The notes beneath the pieces are model-generated. The model was not told where the DNA came from, did not search any database, and saw nothing but the letters and a program-made list of their open reading frames with translations. A DNA stretch of 64,000 bases, taken from sequence record NC_005859.1, one strand, 5' to 3'. Each line of letters starts with the position of its first letter. Position 1 is the stretch's first letter. This DNA is from Escherichia phage T5. Positions 3,473-22,518 of this stretch are shown one piece after another. Both the position numbers and the translations under genes were made by a program.

Positions 3473-3670
3473 TTAATTTAAAGGCATAAGGCTAGAACTA
3501 ACACCACAAGCAACGGCGGCAATAAAACAAATCAGACCTAAACGCTTTGCTAACTTAGATTTACGTTTAAAATAATACGAATCTAAATCATTTTGAAAAT
3601 AAGCGAACAATAACGAGGCCGCCATAATAAACAAGCCTAGAATGAGGGATTCAGTAGGGTAAAAGATCAT
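3473..3670 (-). CDS. small membrane protein
   Basis: 65 aa, two hydrophobic segments. Confidence 0.4.
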   Translation of the reverse strand: MIFYPTESLILGLFIMAASLLFAYFQNDLDSYYFKRKSKLAKRLGLICFIAAVACGVSSSLMPLN

Positions 3671-3726
3671 TTTAAAACTCCAGTCAAAGGGAAATTATAG
3701 TGGGGAATATTCCCCACTAATTAAAT

Positions 3727-4134
3727 TTATTCGCCTGCGGCTTGTTTTACTTCATCGGCAACGCCTAACAGTTGCGCCACGGCGTCCAGCGTTTCCAATT
3801 TTGCACTTTCCAGTGATGCCAGATCGTCAGCGTCTTTGATAATACCGGAATCGATGGCATGTTTTGCAATCACACGCACGTAGTGCGCTTTGCGGATAGA
3901 ACTGCCGCCGCCAACCTTGCGAGGTTTATCGCTTTTCTGATACGCTTTCGCGCTGGTCAATTTTGAGCGAACAGACACGGGAGAAGCCGCGCCAACTGCT
4001 TTTGCAATCTCTTTTAAACCGTCGCTATTTGCGAAATCTAAACCGTTTTCATTAATTAACTGCTGGTACATGGAAACAGCTTTCTGAGTGTTTTCTTCAT
4101 TCCAAGCGAATTTTGCGGTTTTAGCGTTAGTCAT
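3727..4134 (-). CDS. basic DNA-binding-like protein (possible A2)
   Basis: 135 aa (~14 kDa), basic patch KPRKVGGGSSIRKAHYVR; located directly upstream of A1 in the leftward operon; A2 assignment is inference. Confidence 0.45.
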   Translation of the reverse strand: MTNAKTAKFAWNEENTQKAVSMYQQLINENGLDFANSDGLKEIAKAVGAASPVSVRSKLTSAKAYQKSDKPRKVGGGSSIRKAHYVRVIAKHAIDSGIIKDADDLASLESAKLETLDAVAQLLGVADEVKQAAGE

Positions 4135-4481: not shown

Positions 4482-4683
4482 AATATAAACTCCAGTTTAT
4501 TAAGGGGGATTGTTCCGCATTACCTGCTGTAAAAGTAGTGGCAGGTAATAAGCAACAATCCGCTCGCCAATATAATCAATTTAAAGAACTCCACTCAGGC
4601 CGCTATATCCCAGTTAGGGGGCGGGACACATTATGGTAAGTGCCGACCGTCATATTTTATCAAGTTATCGCTCTCATCGAACT

Positions 4684-4974
4684 GGGTACATCTTAAAGCC
4701 TATCGGCTAGGGTGTCAAACTATTTTTTGCAGTTTTTTATGATTTTCTTTCAAGTCAATCATAATGTTTCGCCAGATCATTTCCAGACCTTGCTGGCGGC
4801 CTTTCTTGTACTGCCTAAATCGATATTTTACCGATTGCTGGGCTATTGTCAACAATTTTTTAGTAGTACCATCTAATTTTTTAGCTGGTTTACCAGTGAT
4901 CAATAAAGTTTGTTTCATATCGTCGATTCCTTATAATATATAAGTTTACCGCCGATAGACTTTAAGATGTACCC
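4684..4974. repeat. 24-bp inverted repeat pair flanking a small basic ORF
   Basis: GGGTACATCTTAAAGCCTATCGGC (4684-4707) and its reverse complement (4951-4974), 23/24 identity. Confidence 0.7.
4715..4918 (-). CDS. small basic protein
   Basis: 67 aa Lys/Arg-rich ORF lying between a 24-bp inverted repeat pair. Confidence 0.35.
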   Translation of the reverse strand: MKQTLLITGKPAKKLDGTTKKLLTIAQQSVKYRFRQYKKGRQQGLEMIWRNIMIDLKENHKKLQKIV

Positions 4975-5410
4975 AATTTTTAAAGAGCGTGGCGGTAAAC
5001 TTCCCGCCGTGTAGTTCGTCATTGCCGCCCTACGAGATAAATAATAGGGGATACCCAAAAATGGCGCAACCTTATTTTTGTAAAGAAACGTAAAGAAGGC
5101 AACACGTCCGGCGCTCACCTAAGTTTAAAGGAAACGGGCGCGCGAATACCATAAAACCTAGCAGGTTGGCAAGTAATTTTTTCCTTTATATTTGCCTTGC
5201 CCTAGTTGACAAATCTTAGAAAGCTCGTGGTGACGATAAACGGGTTATCCCCTTATGATGGGATGCCTGAAAAATTTACCGCGTCAGAAAGCGTTTTAGG
5301 CGGCTTATTTTCGATTTAACAAATATTTAACAAAAGCAAAATTGAAAAATAGTTGGAAAAGATATTGACTTTTAAAAATCAAGACTAAACGAGTTATTTT
5401 ATAAAATTAA

Positions 5411-5929
5411 TTAATTGACAATTCCAAATTCAGCTTTTTTAGTTTCTACCCATAATAATAACTCTTGTAAATCATAACCTGATTTACTAACACTTTTGTT
5501 ACTAGTAGGATCTTTAACTATAGCGCGCAAATAGTTTCTTCCGTTATTATCAACTCTAGAACCATTATAATAGATATGCTTAGGCAACTTATTAGCACGC
5601 TTATAATCTTTCTTGTTATTCATATTCTGCTTATGGTCTACTAAGCGAAGATTATTAATGTTATTATTAGCACGGTTACGATCATTATGATCGATTGTTA
5701 GATTGCTATCAATCTCACCATTAAATAATACCCATATTATTCTATGCACTGCGTATTGTTCGCCTGCTAACTTTACTCGATAGTAACCTGTGTTACTATA
5801 ATGCCCTGCAATATCACCCACCTTACTATTACCTTTCTGTACTTTCCATCTTAGAAATGATGGGGATGTTTCATCATAATAAAAGTTATCATTAGCAAGC
5901 GAATAATCTATATCTTTAAATAGACCCAT
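5411..5929 (-). CDS. HNH homing endonuclease
   Basis: 172 aa; HNH core IDHNDRNRANNNINNLRLVDHKQN. Confidence 0.8.
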   Translation of the reverse strand: MGLFKDIDYSLANDNFYYDETSPSFLRWKVQKGNSKVGDIAGHYSNTGYYRVKLAGEQYAVHRIIWVLFNGEIDSNLTIDHNDRNRANNNINNLRLVDHKQNMNNKKDYKRANKLPKHIYYNGSRVDNNGRNYLRAIVKDPTSNKSVSKSGYDLQELLLWVETKKAEFGIVN

Positions 5930-6186
5930 TGTTATAGTTTCCTTATGTTATTAATTTAATCTCTATTATATTATATCAAAACCATTAGCAAACTACCTAA
6001 TGAGTTTTTCAGGTTTAATTAGCAGACTCATAATCACTTTAAAATCCTATTAGCCAACTAACTATATTTTGTTATATAATAACTGCATAAATTAGTTAGT
6101 GAGAAACACTATCATTTAAGTTATCCACAGCCTTATACATTTTGTAAATTAACTTGACACAATAGGAAGGCTTTATAGCACTTTTA

Positions 6187-6238
6187 CACAGACTTATCCA
6201 CAGGTTATTCCACTGTATAAATATACAGGGTAAATGGA
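6187..6238. repeat. left arm of ~40-bp inverted repeat with DnaA-box-like site
   Basis: contains TTATCCACA (6194-6202) and palindrome CTGTATAAATATACAG; reverse complement matches 9420-9460. Confidence 0.65.
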
Positions 6239-6433
6239 AAACATATTATAATGATGCCCAAAATAAGCGGCCTAAAACGCTTTCTAACGAGCAAAACGCT
6301 ATAGGGTAATATTAAAGTAAAGCCTCAACGCGTCGCCCTGGTGGCTTCGCCGTGTTTTGCTCTTTACTATACCGCTGCGCGGTTAGCATAAAACTAGGCG
6401 CTAGGCAAGGAAAATAAAAAGGTAAAATAATAT

Positions 6434-6462
6434 TTGCCTATGCTAGAAAATTACCTTTATCA
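6434..6462 (+). promoter_or_regulatory. sigma70-like promoter for 6495..7505
   Basis: -35 TTGCCT, 17-bp spacer, -10 TTATCA/TATCAT. Confidence 0.45.
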
Positions 6463-6494
6463 TTCACTCACCGATTAACGAGGGAGGCCAACAA

Positions 6495-7505
6495 ATGCGG
6501 CTATATAAACCAGATAACGCAACCGTCTTAAAGGGCGCCTTGCGCAACCTGCTGGATGGTAGCAGGACAACCAGCATTAAACATTTTATTAACAAGGCTG
6601 AAACTATTCACCAAAACTTTTTTAATGATTATGATGCCTATGATATGGATAGTTTTCTACCCCTATATAAGCAGGGGGCAACGATTATCTTATATAATCG
6701 TGATTGCCATATCTTTACGGGCAGGGGAGCGGGGCCGGATACTGATTTTATTGTTGCGCAGGGTAATAATATCGTTGCGTATCATAGCAATTCAGGCCGT
6801 CAATCATTTAATATAAATAATTTTGAGCTTGTTGGGCTTGAATTAATAAACGGACTTTCTAGCCTTGAGGGATTTTTAGATGTTATCTGGAAGTATTTAT
6901 CTGCTGGATGGCATAGACCTGATAGTGATGGATCTCAATATACGGCTGTAATGGCTTTTGATGGCGACGGTAATTTTTTATTACCATCGGAATTATATCC
7001 GTATGTATATAATGAGCTAGTACAAGAAGCGGGTTTTATTTTCTGGAAAGATGAGAATCAGATCATTGACAACACGGAAAAACATGCTGTAAATTCTAAC
7101 ACTCAAAGCGTTAACACTCAAATCACTGAAAACAAAGGAAAAAATGCCATGACCAAGATCGCTAATATCGTTGCCGCTAATAAATCCGCCGTTGTAAATG
7201 CTGCAAAACTGGAAGCGGGCAAAATTGCATTAACTCAAATCACGAAAGTAGCGGCTAAAAAAGCACCATTTATGATTAAAGGTTATATTGATACGCCTAT
7301 TGGTCGGGTAGTTATTGCTAACCTGCTGAGCGTAGCGGTTGACCAGTACGCCCCTAGCAACCAAAAGGCGAAAGCGGTAGCGGGTGCAGCTATGGAAGCG
7401 GCTATGCTAGAAATGGTGCAAAGTTTTAACATCGCTGAAATGATTGATGAAATGGTGAAAGGTATTGATATTTCTACTTTTACCGTTAACACCGAAAGCG
7501 AGTAA
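6495..7505 (+). CDS. hypothetical protein (IR-flanked cassette)
   Basis: 336-aa ORF; SD GGGAGG 7 nt upstream; candidate promoter and downstream terminator. Confidence 0.65.
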   Translation: MRLYKPDNATVLKGALRNLLDGSRTTSIKHFINKAETIHQNFFNDYDAYDMDSFLPLYKQGATIILYNRDCHIFTGRGAGPDTDFIVAQGNNIVAYHSNSGRQSFNINNFELVGLELINGLSSLEGFLDVIWKYLSAGWHRPDSDGSQYTAVMAFDGDGNFLLPSELYPYVYNELVQEAGFIFWKDENQIIDNTEKHAVNSNTQSVNTQITENKGKNAMTKIANIVAANKSAVVNAAKLEAGKIALTQITKVAAKKAPFMIKGYIDTPIGRVVIANLLSVAVDQYAPSNQKAKAVAGAAMEAAMLEMVQSFNIAEMIDEMVKGIDISTFTVNTESE

Positions 7506-8953: not shown

Positions 8954-9157
8954 ATGAGCAATAAAATTATTGTGACCAAAACTACCACAATGGTAGACGT
9001 TTTTTATGTGCCCGATACGCCGGAGAATCGGGGAGCGGTCGAGCGGGGCGAGTATGATAGCGTTATTTATGATGCCGATGGTTATTATCAGCATTTGGTC
9101 GATTCCTACGGGGAAGAGGAGAAGATCACGCATCGATTACCCGAGGGGGATTTATGA
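8954..9157 (+). CDS. hypothetical acidic protein
   Basis: 67-aa ORF. Confidence 0.4.
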   Translation: MSNKIIVTKTTTMVDVFYVPDTPENRGAVERGEYDSVIYDADGYYQHLVDSYGEEEKITHRLPEGDL

Positions 9158-9405
9158 AACGATGGTTTAATCACTGGTATAAACGGTTTTTAGTACGGCA
9201 TCGCAAGTCTAGACAGCAAGATGATTGGCGGGAAATGGCAAAGCGTAACAATTGCCCACTTCTCTGATAACCGACGGGGATCAGCTCCCCGTTTTTCACG
9301 CCTCCAGTTAAATCCCCCTTTGTTTTAGTATCCCCATCAAAATTAAACGCGTTAGAATGCGATCTAGGACGTTTTAGGCATATATTAGAATTATTCACTG
9401 CGTAG

Positions 9406-9460
9406 GAATACTGTATAAATATACAGTAGGATAACCTGGGGATAAGTCTGTTGATAACGC
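9406..9460. repeat. right arm of ~40-bp inverted repeat
   Basis: CTGTATAAATATACAG then GGATAACCTGGGGATAAGTCTG, inverted relative to 6187-6238. Confidence 0.65.
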
Positions 9461-9509
9461 TTCAAAATGGCTAGGATTTTGTCAAGGCGAATCGTGCTGT
9501 TGATAAGTC

Positions 9510-9518
9510 TGTGGATAA
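9510..9518. promoter_or_regulatory. DnaA-box-like site
   Basis: TGTGGATAA, reverse complement of consensus TTATCCACA; further copies at 6121-6129 and 6194-6202. Confidence 0.5.
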
Positions 9519-9545
9519 CTTAAATAACAGTGTTTCTCACTTCCG

Positions 9546-9720
9546 TTTTTAAATACGAATCATTATCATTCGTATTCCGCTTTTTAAATGAGAATCATTC
9601 CGCTTTTTAAATGAGAATCATTTCACTTCCTGAATAGTTCTCATTCCCTTTCTTAAATGAGAATCATTATCATTTGCATTTCACTTTTTAAATGAGATTG
9701 ATTCTCATTATCATTCGCAT
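9546..9720. repeat. direct repeats with palindromic core AATGAGAATCATT
   Basis: about 5 tandem imperfect copies of CGCTTTTTAAATGAGAATCATT-like units. Confidence 0.7.
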
Positions 9721-9728
9721 TCAGGCGA

Positions 9729-9755
9729 GCAGGGCAATTGCCCTGCGCTTTTGTG
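9729..9755 (+). terminator. hairpin with T-tract
   Basis: palindrome CAGGGCAATTGCCCTG followed by CGCTTTTG. Confidence 0.45.
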
Positions 9756-10490
9756 CAAATCCGACATTTGCCCCCATGGATTACGCGTGGGCGTGTATGT
9801 GCAAATCCGACAATTTTTGGTAGTGTGCGAATCCGACCCGAAAAATTTTTATAGTGTGCAAATCCGACAATGAATTTTCCCAAAAACTCCAGCAATCACG
9901 AACTGCGTTCGAATCCTGTGGAATTAGCTAGAGTATGTGCAAATCCGACATGTGTTGAGATGTGCGAATCCGACAAGATTTTTGTGACTTCGATGGGAGG
10001 GTGTGTGATTGTATGGGTTTGAGGGGAAGATGAGAGAGCGAGAGAAATTTGGGAGGCTAGAAGGATATGGGCGCAGGATTGGTGCGGAGCACCTGATTTG
10101 CGGGGATTTTGGGGAAGAGTTGAGATAATTTGGGAAGATTTGAGATAGGTGCAGAAAAAGTAAAATTTTATTAGCTAAAGGGGGCAAAATAGCTTGACAA
10201 GTGAAAATTTCTGTGGCTCTAAAAACTCAGGCAATCATGGGCCTTCGGCCCGAAATAATGCTGCTATTTTCAGGAGAGTAAGAGTTCCTAAAAACTTAGG
10301 CGTTTGTGCAAATCCGACCATAAATTTCTAGAAACACAATGTGCAAATCCGACAGTAATTTCTGGAAATGTGTTTTCAAAAAATGTCTTCTAGAAATAAC
10401 CGCCCTCCCTATAACCGCCCTGTATTAAACCGCCTATTGCTGGAGTTTCTAGGAACATGAAAACTGCCCTAGAGTATGTGCAAATCCGAT
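9753..10490. repeat. dispersed 14-bp repeat family GTGCRAATCCGAC(A)
   Basis: 9 copies at ~9753, 9799, 9825, 9856, 9937, 9963, 10306, 10341, 10478; one more inside a CDS at 12164. Confidence 0.8.
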
Positions 10491-10560
10491 GAATATTTTT
10501 GTGTGATCCCTAGAATTTATACTTATCAATTTCCTAGAAACTCAGGAGTCTAGAAGAAAG
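10325..10560. repeat. cluster of TTCTAGAA-type palindromes
   Basis: at least 6 TTCTAGAAA/TTCTGGAAA/TTCTAGGAA/TCTAGAAG sites within ~240 bp. Confidence 0.6.
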
Positions 10561-10935
10561 TGTTGTGCCATCCTAGCAGATGAGCGGCAACAGGTGTATC
10601 ATCTTGAATGTAAATTATATGGTCAAAAGTTTTACTTTTATTTTAAATATAAGATCCCCCAGGGTTCTCATATAGAGCTTTGCCCCCGCCAGAAGGTCTC
10701 GTGATGTTTCTAGTAATTTATATTAAATTACTTATTAACTTGTCCTATCGCTCCGTATCCTCCGCTACAAGTTAGTAATTTTAAATTACTGAACCACCAC
10801 ACCTTCTGTGTGGCAACTCTAAATGGTTAATTCTATTAACTCATAGAGTTATGATAACATACATTTAGCTATCTGTCAACGAAAGTTTGTATTTGAGTCT
10901 CGGTACAGGTATTGTGCACCGAGATATGCAGAGTA

Positions 10936-11820
10936 TTATAATAATTCTTGGTATGCTTTTTGATACGCCTCAGTATCTGTAGGTGTATCTTTTGCTAACG
11001 CAATTAGTTCATCTGTTATCTGAACATTCGTACTATAACGTTGGTGGAACTCTTCTGGGATTTCTAGGTATCTATTTATGAACGCTGCAGCAAGCGGTGT
11101 AACTAACCCAATTTCTAGGGATAACTTAACTTGTTTCTCATAAATTAAATACTGAGAATCAGATGGGATTGGTGGGGTTACATCAACTTTTTCTGGTTCT
11201 TTTTCTGGAAGCAATGGATTGTTATACAATGCTTCATCTGGAAGCACAGATTTACGCTCTTTAAATATATAAGTTTCTAGATCCGATGCTTTAGATCCTG
11301 AGTAAACAGCGAAGATGCTAGCTTTACCTTGTGATGCCCTAACTGGTAAATAGTTAGTTGGGTAACTCCTTAATGCATCATGGAATGGACTTCCTGAGTA
11401 TTTGTATGTATCCCCATAGAGATCATCAATATTCATTCGTTCATCTTCAAAGATATGGAAAGAGCTAAATGATGGGATGGTGAAGTATTCCATCTGTAAC
11501 CCATAAACTAAGAAACGATGTGCATATGCGCTAATCTTTAAGACTGTGAATGCTTTCTCACCTTCTTTATAAGAATTGCCCTTTGAAGTAACTTGATAAC
11601 GCTTACAAAACATCTCTACTAAACGTTTCTCATTAATATTGAGTGAGGAATATAAACGTCCATTTAGCCCTAGAAGGGCATCAAACATAAATGCTAACTT
11701 ATCTTTTTCTTCTTGAGACAGTTCTGGAAATGGTAATACTTTGGCATTAGGAACATTATTGTTCTCTTTAGGTTTTGTTTTACCAGCATTTTGTCTTAGT
11801 TTATCTTTAAAGTTATACAT
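10936..11820 (-). CDS. hypothetical protein
   Basis: 294-aa ORF, first gene of minus-strand early block. Confidence 0.6.
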   Translation of the reverse strand: MYNFKDKLRQNAGKTKPKENNNVPNAKVLPFPELSQEEKDKLAFMFDALLGLNGRLYSSLNINEKRLVEMFCKRYQVTSKGNSYKEGEKAFTVLKISAYAHRFLVYGLQMEYFTIPSFSSFHIFEDERMNIDDLYGDTYKYSGSPFHDALRSYPTNYLPVRASQGKASIFAVYSGSKASDLETYIFKERKSVLPDEALYNNPLLPEKEPEKVDVTPPIPSDSQYLIYEKQVKLSLEIGLVTPLAAAFINRYLEIPEEFHQRYSTNVQITDELIALAKDTPTDTEAYQKAYQELL

Positions 11821-11901: not shown

Positions 11902-12510
11902 TTAATCCTTTTTATTCTCATTAATAACAGCTCCTAGTGCTTCAAGGATAGTATCATTTATACTCCCAGGCCTAAGATTATTAAAGTGAGTAACATAGAT
12001 GGGACTTTTAAAACCTTCAGTATCCACAGGTGCTACGCTTTTCATGTCAGATTCAAAAGCTTCTTGAGTATGTTTCAATTGTGCAGAAGGTCCATAATCT
12101 TCACCAACTCGATATGAGGAATTATTTTCTATAACGCCACCGCATGGAACATTGTGCAAATCCGACGTTATTTTAGGACTGTTCCACATTGTAATTGGCC
12201 CCGATTGCCACGGATCTCGAATAGTCACAGGAGTACTAGGACGGTTAACCTCAGTCTTCACAAGCTTATAACCAGCATCGATTAGTGTATTAATTAGATT
12301 ATCAGCGGGAATACGAGCCTTGCCAAAAATCTTACGAGCGTTGTTGAGCCTACCTTCAAAATCTTTACATGCTTTAATATTAGTGTGTGCAAAGGTTAGC
12401 TTCATAGATTTGAACTGTACGGTAGCAGTTAAATCTTTAAAAGCATAATCCCACGTATTCAGTTCATGATCTGGTACTACTTGAATAGATTGCTGTGCAT
12501 ATAAAGTCAT
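11902..12510 (-). CDS. hypothetical protein
   Basis: 202-aa ORF; contains one copy of the GTGCAAATCCGAC repeat motif at 12164-12176. Confidence 0.6.
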   Translation of the reverse strand: MTLYAQQSIQVVPDHELNTWDYAFKDLTATVQFKSMKLTFAHTNIKACKDFEGRLNNARKIFGKARIPADNLINTLIDAGYKLVKTEVNRPSTPVTIRDPWQSGPITMWNSPKITSDLHNVPCGGVIENNSSYRVGEDYGPSAQLKHTQEAFESDMKSVAPVDTEGFKSPIYVTHFNNLRPGSINDTILEALGAVINENKKD

Positions 12511-21765: not shown

Positions 21766-22518
21766 TTATCCAACTAGTGGTTCTAGCTCTAAGTCACAGA
21801 AGTTATACACTTCTAGTTTAAGGTTATTGATACCATCGAATTTATTAACTAATTCGTGAGTGATATATTTTGCAGGAATACCACTTTCAGATGGATGATC
21901 TGATTTAATAGTGAACTTCTGCTCAGCGGGCACTACATTTACTAGTAAAGAATCCATATCTAAATGGTTCGTCTCTCTGAGTAACTCTCCTTCATTGGGG
22001 AATCTCACATCTGTTATTACGGCGACATCTGGGTCGTCTTTAGCGATGGATTGCTCCAGAATTATGAGCCAAATGCGTTCATGTACCAGCTGCCTTCCTA
22101 GCTCCGTTCCTACGAGCTGTAACATTTTTCTCGGAGAAATAAATAAACTATAAAGTCCGTCTTCTTTATTCTCTGAGATAAGTTGTTGAGGATTAAGATA
22201 TTTTTCCTCAAAAATCGGCCAAACGTACGAGAAGTCTTCAAACTTATCGATACCGTATTTAAACCATACGTCTCTAGCTCGCTCCAATTGAGATTGTGTG
22301 ACCGTAAACCATTGGTCAATCTCTTTCCCCCTGCGCTCTCCTAGAAACTCTGGAGTTACGCCGAGGATTACGGATGCAAGTTCATAAACGGGCTTAGCAA
22401 AACTGTAACGACGGGATAAACACGTTGGATACGTGTCATTACACCAATCGATAATTAATTTTGCAACGGTATCTTTTCCCGAACCAGCTTCACCATGTAA
22501 ACCGACTAATACTGACAT
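21766..22518 (-). CDS. deoxynucleoside monophosphate kinase (P-loop)
   Basis: 250 aa; Walker A GEAGSGKDT. Confidence 0.55.
   Translation of the reverse strand: MSVLVGLHGEAGSGKDTVAKLIIDWCNDTYPTCLSRRYSFAKPVYELASVILGVTPEFLGERRGKEIDQWFTVTQSQLERARDVWFKYGIDKFEDFSYVWPIFEEKYLNPQQLISENKEDGLYSLFISPRKMLQLVGTELGRQLVHERIWLIILEQSIAKDDPDVAVITDVRFPNEGELLRETNHLDMDSLLVNVVPAEQKFTIKSDHPSESGIPAKYITHELVNKFDGINNLKLEVYNFCDLELEPLVG

Follow-up and report, generated by a model that had tools for sequence, protein, structure and literature searches.

The repeat-rich block at positions 9546-10560 of the 64-kb stretch of DNA analysed here (the window) can be identified with certainty, on its sequence, as the known injection stop signal region of phage T5, also named Repeat Region 3. 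In our preferred reading, to which we assign a probability of about 0.55, the block combines an arrest module on its left with a genome-end module on its right, both composed of predicted protein-binding sites. The two-step transfer of T5 DNA has been without a mechanism since 1968, and the block is its only known cis element. That a cis-acting signal halts transfer at about 8% until A1 and A2 have been made rests on published shear mapping.

Positions 9300-10900 are 99.9% identical to AY692264.1 over 1601 bases and at identical coordinates, which places the block at the left end of the phage T5 genome. The same interval matches AY587007.1 with an offset of -79 (window = record + 79). The AY692264 record in GenBank carries an 'injection stop signal' feature at 9140-10144, beneath the match, and marks a major single-chain interruption in the minus strand at 9748/9749. 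Under the region, AY587007 annotates copies 1-4 of direct repeat C, palindromes E-J and copies 1-9 of direct repeat D; it also annotates a tenth copy of direct repeat D, at the 12154 site inside a coding sequence. The T5 stop region was reportedly described by Heusterspreute et al. in 1987 and by Davison in 2015 and 2020, and the annotation of AY587007 is credited to Wang et al. (2005). A preprint by Davison names it Repeat Region 3 (9194-10409 in AY587007) and lists the same repeats, credited to descriptions from 1987, 2005 and 2015 (bioRxiv 10.1101/866236). The region is held to be the T5 injection stop signal (bioRxiv 10.1101/866236; PMC13250531), and papers from 2026 still characterise that signal as non-coding DNA rich in repeats, with a restart mechanism that they call poorly understood. 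Beyond sequence identity, the block occupies an untranslated gap between convergent genes and shows the published order of direct repeats C/E, direct repeat D, palindromes and paired DnaA boxes, an order that recurs in relatives.

Compared with the published Repeat Region 3 the sequence is the same: the tandem palindromes (family 1) and the dispersed direct repeats (family 2) correspond to the published direct repeats C/E and D and to palindromes E-J, with no difference in either family. The third family, a cluster of TTCTAGAA palindromes, is unnamed in both AY692264 and AY587007, and the string 'tctaga' is absent from the Davison preprint. Also absent from that preprint is the word 'packaging', so that the D arrays are not linked there to packaging at the genome end. 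The finding of the region is thus a rediscovery of published annotation, which on its own adds nothing to GenBank or to the literature. The residual value of our analysis lies in the proposal that the D arrays serve genome-end formation and not the stop.

Table 1 Features of the block and of the adjoining DNA, in window coordinates
Feature	Position	Strand	Details and source
Palindrome C, putative rho-independent terminator ending pre-early transcription	9273..9297	+	AY587007 annotation, 9194-9213
Inverted repeat IRD'-spacer-IRC' with two pairs of DnaA-type boxes	9411..9541	+	Sequence, motif map, bioRxiv 10.1101/866236
DnaA-type boxes	9438-9446; 9449-9457; 9498-9506; 9510-9518		GGGGATAAG; TGTTGATAA; TGTTGATAA; consensus TGTGGATAA
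Family 1, AATGAGAATCATT-type imperfect palindromes	9534..9722	.	Direct repeats C/E and palindromes E-I
Palindrome J GCAGGGCAATTGCCCTGC with the major 7.9% nick	9729..9749	-	AY692264 and AY587007 annotations
D cluster I, six co-oriented sites	9753..9973	+	9753, 9799, 9825, 9856, 9937, 9962; D copies 1-6
G-rich tract, GC skew up to +0.69	9975..10219	+	Direct repeat A copies 10109-10147; conserved TTGACA 10194-10199
Highly conserved junction block with TAAAAACTCAGGCAATCA and a hairpin	10220..10305	+	Hairpin GGGCCTTCGGCCC, 10239-10251
D cluster II, copies 7-9, in unique DNA	10306..10489	+	10306, 10341, 10478; AY587007 annotation
Family 3, CTAG-centred palindromes	10326..10555	.	TTCTAGAA exact at 10326, 10388; one mismatch at 10360, 10447, 10532, 10548
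D copy 10, inside minus-strand CDS T5p018 (11902-12510)	12154..12165	+	Annotation; present in many relatives

The block lies in a non-coding mosaic of approximately 1.35 kb that is flanked by the last pre-early and the last early gene and extends across the right-hand boundary of the 10.2 kb terminal repeat. On the left, the pre-early coding sequence stops at 9157, the early CDS occupies 10936-11820 on the minus strand, and these flanking genes converge on the gap; the conserved non-coding block has palindrome C as its left edge. A sequence-only reading of this DNA had called the region free of open reading frames, which is right in substance. Two mechanical ORFs are present on the minus strand, of 80 aa (9653-9895) and 87 aa (9924-10187), but neither is annotated in T5 and neither matched a PHROG family. 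Both were rejected as hidden genes, the 87-aa frame being broken by indels and stops in most relatives and the 80-aa frame being open in close relatives only, with no clear codon periodicity. An RNA gene was likewise rejected, since the best Rfam matches scored 23 and 21.6 bits, where the gathering scores are 70 and 35. A tRNA remnant was rejected too: ARAGORN calls no tRNA, and the core of the D repeat, although it resembles the tRNA T-arm consensus, is without a stem partner. No curated model of a known structured RNA, tRNA or CRISPR array matched at threshold. The neighbouring genes encode small hypothetical proteins, none of them an initiator in the AY692264 and AY587007 annotations. In two relatives, coding sequences have been called across D sites: HOS38_gp014 of chee24 (1751-2284 of the stretch compared), which has no PHROG match, and gp206 and gp207 of Vibrio phage GRLPWR (4353-4742 of the stretch compared). 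All are probably spurious calls. A near-consensus sigma-70 promoter is found on the minus strand at 10879-10851 (TTGACA, 17 nt, TATCAT, with an upstream TG). It is located downstream of the last early gene, points leftward into the block with no ORF following, and is conserved better than its surroundings.

The DnaA-box inverted repeat (9411-9541) sits just to the left of 9546-10560 and is followed by the family 1 array, which is made up of five 23-nt units and two 67-nt units. Tandem Repeats Finder reports a period of 23 with 4.1 copies, and the tandem palindromic units described earlier are thereby borne out. Exact copies of AATGAGAATCATT occur at 9587, 9610 and 9656. Allowing up to two mismatches, ten of the 14 matches in the window fall within 9552-9709, and the other four equal chance expectation (4.09). 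When the rest of the genome was scanned, family 1 was found only in the right terminal copy, besides chance-level matches. GC content is 29% over 9500-9699, and as single-stranded DNA the family 1 block folds far better than shuffled sequence (z = -6.7). Davison places the shear point at roughly 9618 in AY587007 (about 9697 in the window), inside the family 1 block, and considers the DnaA-box repeat together with the DRE units to be the likeliest stop signal (bioRxiv 10.1101/866236). The stop candidates favoured in the literature (the DnaA-box repeat at 9411-9541 and the DRE/DRC units) are at or to the left of 9546. With a shear estimate of ~9700, most D repeats would belong to the DNA still outside the cell at the pause; the 7.9% estimate is approximate ('roughly' 9618), and a division of the block into two modules is therefore approximate as well. 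The T5 tail tube measures ~160 nm (PMC9586334), or ~470 bp, which would place the DNA from ~9700 to ~10200-10300 in the tail at the pause. We set this geometrical argument aside, as the shear estimate is too loose for it to discriminate between models.

Direct repeat D has the core GTGCAAATCCGA, and GTGCRAATCCGA occurs ten times in the 64-kb window, always on the plus strand, against 0.32 copies expected by chance. Nine of these copies lie at 9753-10489, in agreement with the claim of at least nine, and the tenth at 12154-12165 is the further copy that had been noticed within a CDS; the position given then (12164) marks where this copy ends. Only some of the copies extend to the full 14-mer with its final CA. 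D cluster I is inside the terminal repeat, and D cluster II is interleaved with TTCTAGAA-type palindromes. Elsewhere in the T5 genome, D sites are confined to six in the right terminal copy and a tandem pair inside exo2, and copies 10-12 are far from any genome end. The exo2/D13 pair (AY587007 79019-79048) is ~370 bp from the 64.7% major nick. Orientation is strictly kept: all 18 sites in the full T5 genome, outlying copies included, are on one strand, as are 58 of 58 in seven phages. The logo from those 58 sites, aTGTGCRAATCCGAY, describes a discrete, asymmetric element of ~15 bp with uninformative flanks; the sites were selected at one mismatch or fewer, which inflates the information in the core and leaves the flank contrast and the strand bias unaffected. 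Spacings in T5 are irregular (46, 26, 31, 81, 25, 344, 35 and 137), and in three relatives they are a regular 27 nt. The D sites of relatives are all co-oriented and form two clusters 250-650 bp apart. The motif is thus polar and has been kept from coliphages to Vibrio phages, providing defined 15-bp targets.

The right end of the genome coincides with the right boundary of the terminal repeat, at 10219|10220, between the two D clusters. The sequence-only reading had suggested protein-binding arrays and possibly an injection stop at the boundary of pre-early and early DNA, which matches the AY692264 feature and the literature; it missed this genome end and that the right third of the region (10220-10560, with D copies 7-9 and the TTCTAGAA cluster) is beyond the terminal repeat. 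The T5 genome end reads ...TCTGTGGCTC|TAAAAACTCAGG, and eight of the 11 records that hold both repeats end at a homologous ...TTGACAAGTGAAAATTTCTGTGGCTC|TAAAAACTCAGGCAAT. For BF23, whose repeat length comes from a PhageTerm analysis of sequencing reads (PMC10644984), the end falls exactly at the site homologous to that of T5, 466 nt from the first BF23 D copy. In the My1-like, IME260 and Vibrio GRLPWR records, D clusters lie on both sides of the end or next to it; the ends annotated in Kenya-K20 and chee24 differ, and these were treated as less reliable. A repeat ending at the nick (9749, as in AY692264) was rejected, since the right-end copy there is simply cut and AY587007, the NC_005859-type records and BF23 give 10218-10219. 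The D clusters lie 86-246 bp from the end and together span ~740 bp, with six sites to the left, three to the right and all on one strand, a topology that is the same in GRLPWR. Because the end splits the array, the right-terminal copy is without D cluster II.

An end generated inside the block, with asymmetric repeats beside the cut that give it polarity, is what is found at pac/cos-type sites. The P1 pac hexamers, SPP1 pacL/pacR, the lambda cosB R sites and the repeat arrays next to the T7 terminal repeat are terminase recognition sites in which asymmetric elements are repeated around or beside the cut; the T5 block resembles them in that its co-oriented short repeats form two clusters flanking an end site conserved across genera. 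The T5 clusters (86-246 bp from the cut, ~740 bp span) are larger than the P1, SPP1, lambda and T7 sites and, unlike these, T5 has extra D copies at 12154 and in exo2. A last-in-first-out rule would give T5 a packaging direction opposite to one that starts at the left end. That the left end of T5 is packed first is a second-hand statement (PMC3517423).

The 7.9% nick is in the minus-strand sequence A/GCGCAGG (9742-9749), cut between 9749 and 9748, and conforms to the nick consensus R/GCGCRGG (PMC3517423). On the plus strand, palindrome J also scores as a terminator. The first D copy begins 4 nt from this nick (CCTGCGC-N4-D1), a spacing that is the same in T5 and GRLPWR. A role for D as a general determinant of nicking was rejected, as no D site lies close to nick 2 or nick 3. 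Two genes, sciA and sciB, are reported to be responsible for T5 nicking (PMC3517423). We found that sciB (AY587007 108016-108498; 48517-48999 on the minus strand of the stretch compared) matches the small-terminase family phrog_3802 (E = 6.5e-91) and is located directly upstream of the gene for the large terminase subunit. A small-terminase homologue beside the large subunit links the genetics of T5 nicking to the packaging enzyme.

An alignment with 18 T5-like phages shows the block (~9290-10660) to be 80-100% conserved, compared with 30-60% for the flanking coding DNA, a point on conservation also made by Davison (bioRxiv 10.1101/866236). In Vibrio phage GRLPWR (Ermolyevavirinae) the A1 protein is 31% identical to that of T5, and the D motif is unchanged: there are eight co-oriented sites, six inside and two outside the repeat boundary, along with two perfect DnaA boxes and a palindrome array of different sequence. 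In Proteus phage 1 (Novosibvirus; A1 42% identical) the equivalent gap is 2.4 kb (4617-7027 of the stretch compared) and contains a DnaA-box pair (TTATCAACA, AG, TTATTCACA), three 46-bp tandem units with ATTATCATT and about ten C-rich units of 15/18 bp. DnaA-box pairs followed by a palindromic array thus recur in the Proteus and Vibrio phages, with the palindrome sequence differing. The D motif was not found in the Proteus phage 1 gap, despite the presence of A1, A2 and small-terminase homologues. Because Proteus phage 1 is without the motif, D would be either dispensable within the family or bound by a partner that has changed specificity. Small terminase and A2 are present in both Proteus phage 1 and GRLPWR; the T5 proteins kept better in GRLPWR than in Proteus phage 1, a comparison aimed at the D-binding protein with one D-negative genome, are tail-fibre-like, RNase H, phosphoesterase and unknown-function proteins, and point to no particular binder.

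Family 3 and several lesser repeats complete the right part of the block. The sequence-only reading counted at least six TTCTAGAA palindromes, which overstates the case: two are exact and six fall within one mismatch. Their clustering is nevertheless non-random, since six matches within 250 bp were reached in 1 of 5000 random placements. In the genome-wide motif search that had been suggested, families 1 and D recur in the right terminal copy, and D also as the exo2 pair. Across the window the TTCTAGAA motif has 62 occurrences compared with 47.6 expected, slightly above chance. At 10447 and 10532 the family 3 copy is part of a longer unit, CCTAGAAACTC(N)GGAG, and the motif is missing from the distant relatives compared. 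Three (T/A)AACCGCC (TAACCGCC) units in a tandem-like arrangement at 10397-10434 are interleaved with D cluster II. These are 180-215 bp to the right of the repeat boundary; the sequence also occurs at 35-42, 34 nt from the left genome end, and only one further copy exists in the window. To the left of the genome end, the G-rich, skewed stretch proper (9975-10190) is C-poor on the plus strand and contains TTGGGGAAGAGTTGAGATA-type repeats. G-rich repeats and then TTGAC(A/T) plus 20-23 nt also precede the end in My1-like phage and in Vibrio phage GRLPWR.

The identity, anatomy, conservation and polarity of the block and the position of the genome end are shown; the binding partners and both mechanisms of the preferred two-module reading we infer as follows. 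The left module would comprise the DnaA-box pairs (9438-9518), the family 1 array (9534-9722) and palindrome J with its nick (9729-9749), at the point, about 7.9% into the genome, where first-step transfer halts. Most likely this module forms a nucleoprotein or hairpin structure that blocks translocation at the cell envelope until the pre-early proteins A1 and A2 remove it. An architecture that sits at the estimated shear point, and is kept even though the palindromes change, fits an obstacle formed by bound protein or by an extruded hairpin. In vitro, T5 is reported to eject its whole genome without the 8% stop, which favours a cell-dependent obstacle without identifying it. The right module would consist of the two D clusters together with the G-rich tract, the junction block and the TTCTAGAA units, arranged around the right-end site. 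Most likely it serves as a polar array recognised by a phage protein that binds specific sequences and takes part in forming the end and in nicking, and the SciB small terminase subunit is the obvious candidate for the D binder. The bracketing of a conserved end by D clusters, together with the fixed 4 nt between nick and first D copy, suggests that the stop and end-forming functions should be separated. Taken to its full extent, this proposal would put the D sites outside the injection stop altogether, as a polar terminase/nicking array with SciB as candidate binder that fixes both the right end and the 7.9% nick, so that much of the 'injection stop signal' would be a packaging/maturation site. 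We advance this extended version only tentatively and do not expect it to hold in all its parts.

The whole block, D and TTCTAGAA units included, might instead be a single stop/restart device, with host DnaA and possibly IHF/Fis bound to the entering DNA at the membrane and the D sites serving as A1/A2 targets, at which these proteins would cleave the DNA or let it go so that second-step transfer can begin. The model proposed by Davison is of this kind, with arrest by membrane-bound DnaA at the box pairs and release through A1/A2 cleavage to the right (bioRxiv 10.1101/866236), and his 25-phage comparison likewise puts the cleavage site of these proteins on the right-hand side of the stop. The conservation of DnaA-box pairs in the T5, Proteus and Vibrio phages is as expected for a host protein common to their hosts, PHROG places A2 in a 'DNA binding protein' family, and the start of the D array, 4 nt past the nick, roughly coincides with the shear point. 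We nevertheless find a single device doubtful. It does not account for the flanking of the genome end by D clusters in several genera, for the location of three D copies and of family 3 beyond the terminal repeat, or for the D sites at 12154 and within exo2; Proteus phage 1, from which the D motif is absent, does have A1 and A2; and Davison concedes that his model gives the repeats no role.

Two further readings are considerably less probable. The sequence-only reading had also raised a replication-partition-like locus, and in the same vein the block could be an iteron-type replication origin, or a recombination/circularisation site, in which family 1 would be an AT-rich unwinding element and the D repeats iterons bound by a phage initiator. 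Four DnaA-type boxes, the 29% GC block at 9500-9699 and co-oriented repeats do follow one another as in iteron/oriC-type origins, some relatives have the regular 27-nt spacing, and the likeness to oriC was noted by Davison (bioRxiv 10.1101/866236). This amounts to resemblance, however: the D repeats of T5 are irregularly spaced, the block has no initiator gene beside it, and the genome end divides the array. Davison also notes that first-step DNA does not carry the replication functions, and the electron microscopy that he cites maps the T5 origins near the centre of the molecule, leaving an origin here quite improbable. Conservation could also reflect transcription, through a convergent terminator zone or a non-coding RNA read leftwards from the 10879-10851 promoter. 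Palindromes C and J score as terminators and the conserved, near-consensus minus-strand promoter points into the block, but the terminators cover <60 bp of it, no Rfam family comes near threshold, there is no tRNA, and an RNA would not account for discrete 15-bp units that are kept across subfamilies between unconserved spacers; we regard this as very improbable.

A number of minor observations concern the termini and the nicks. The sequence AAACTCMRGCAAT defines a fourth family of repeats, its three exact copies lying at 9884-9896 (+), 10223-10235 (+) and 10436-10448 (-). One of them begins 4 nt past the genome end, and two belong to a pair of 23-nt inverted repeats (9874-9896 and 10436-10458) that brackets the end. 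Several relatives, among them chee24 and NBEco002, have TGTCCAGTGGCC..CCAGATGAGAATGAGTCTCATTACCGCC as the first 45 nt inside the left terminus (about 3655-3700, 3908-3950 and 3557-3600 of three of the stretches compared), a sequence containing a family-1-like GAGAAT palindrome and an ACCGCC unit; the T5 version is degenerate. The sequence CCTAGAAACTCNGGAG is present in exactly two copies in the 64 kb, one within the TTCTAGAA cluster (10533-10548) and one at 22340-22355, starting 3 nt past the nick-2 consensus (22330-22337). The four major nick sites (9742-9790, 22330-22380, 39740-39790 and AY587007 78651-78700) share CCYGCGCY and, ~30 nt downstream, a second element (ATTACG, ATTACA or TTACGCGTG), which may be the extra recognition sequence that must exist according to PMC3517423.
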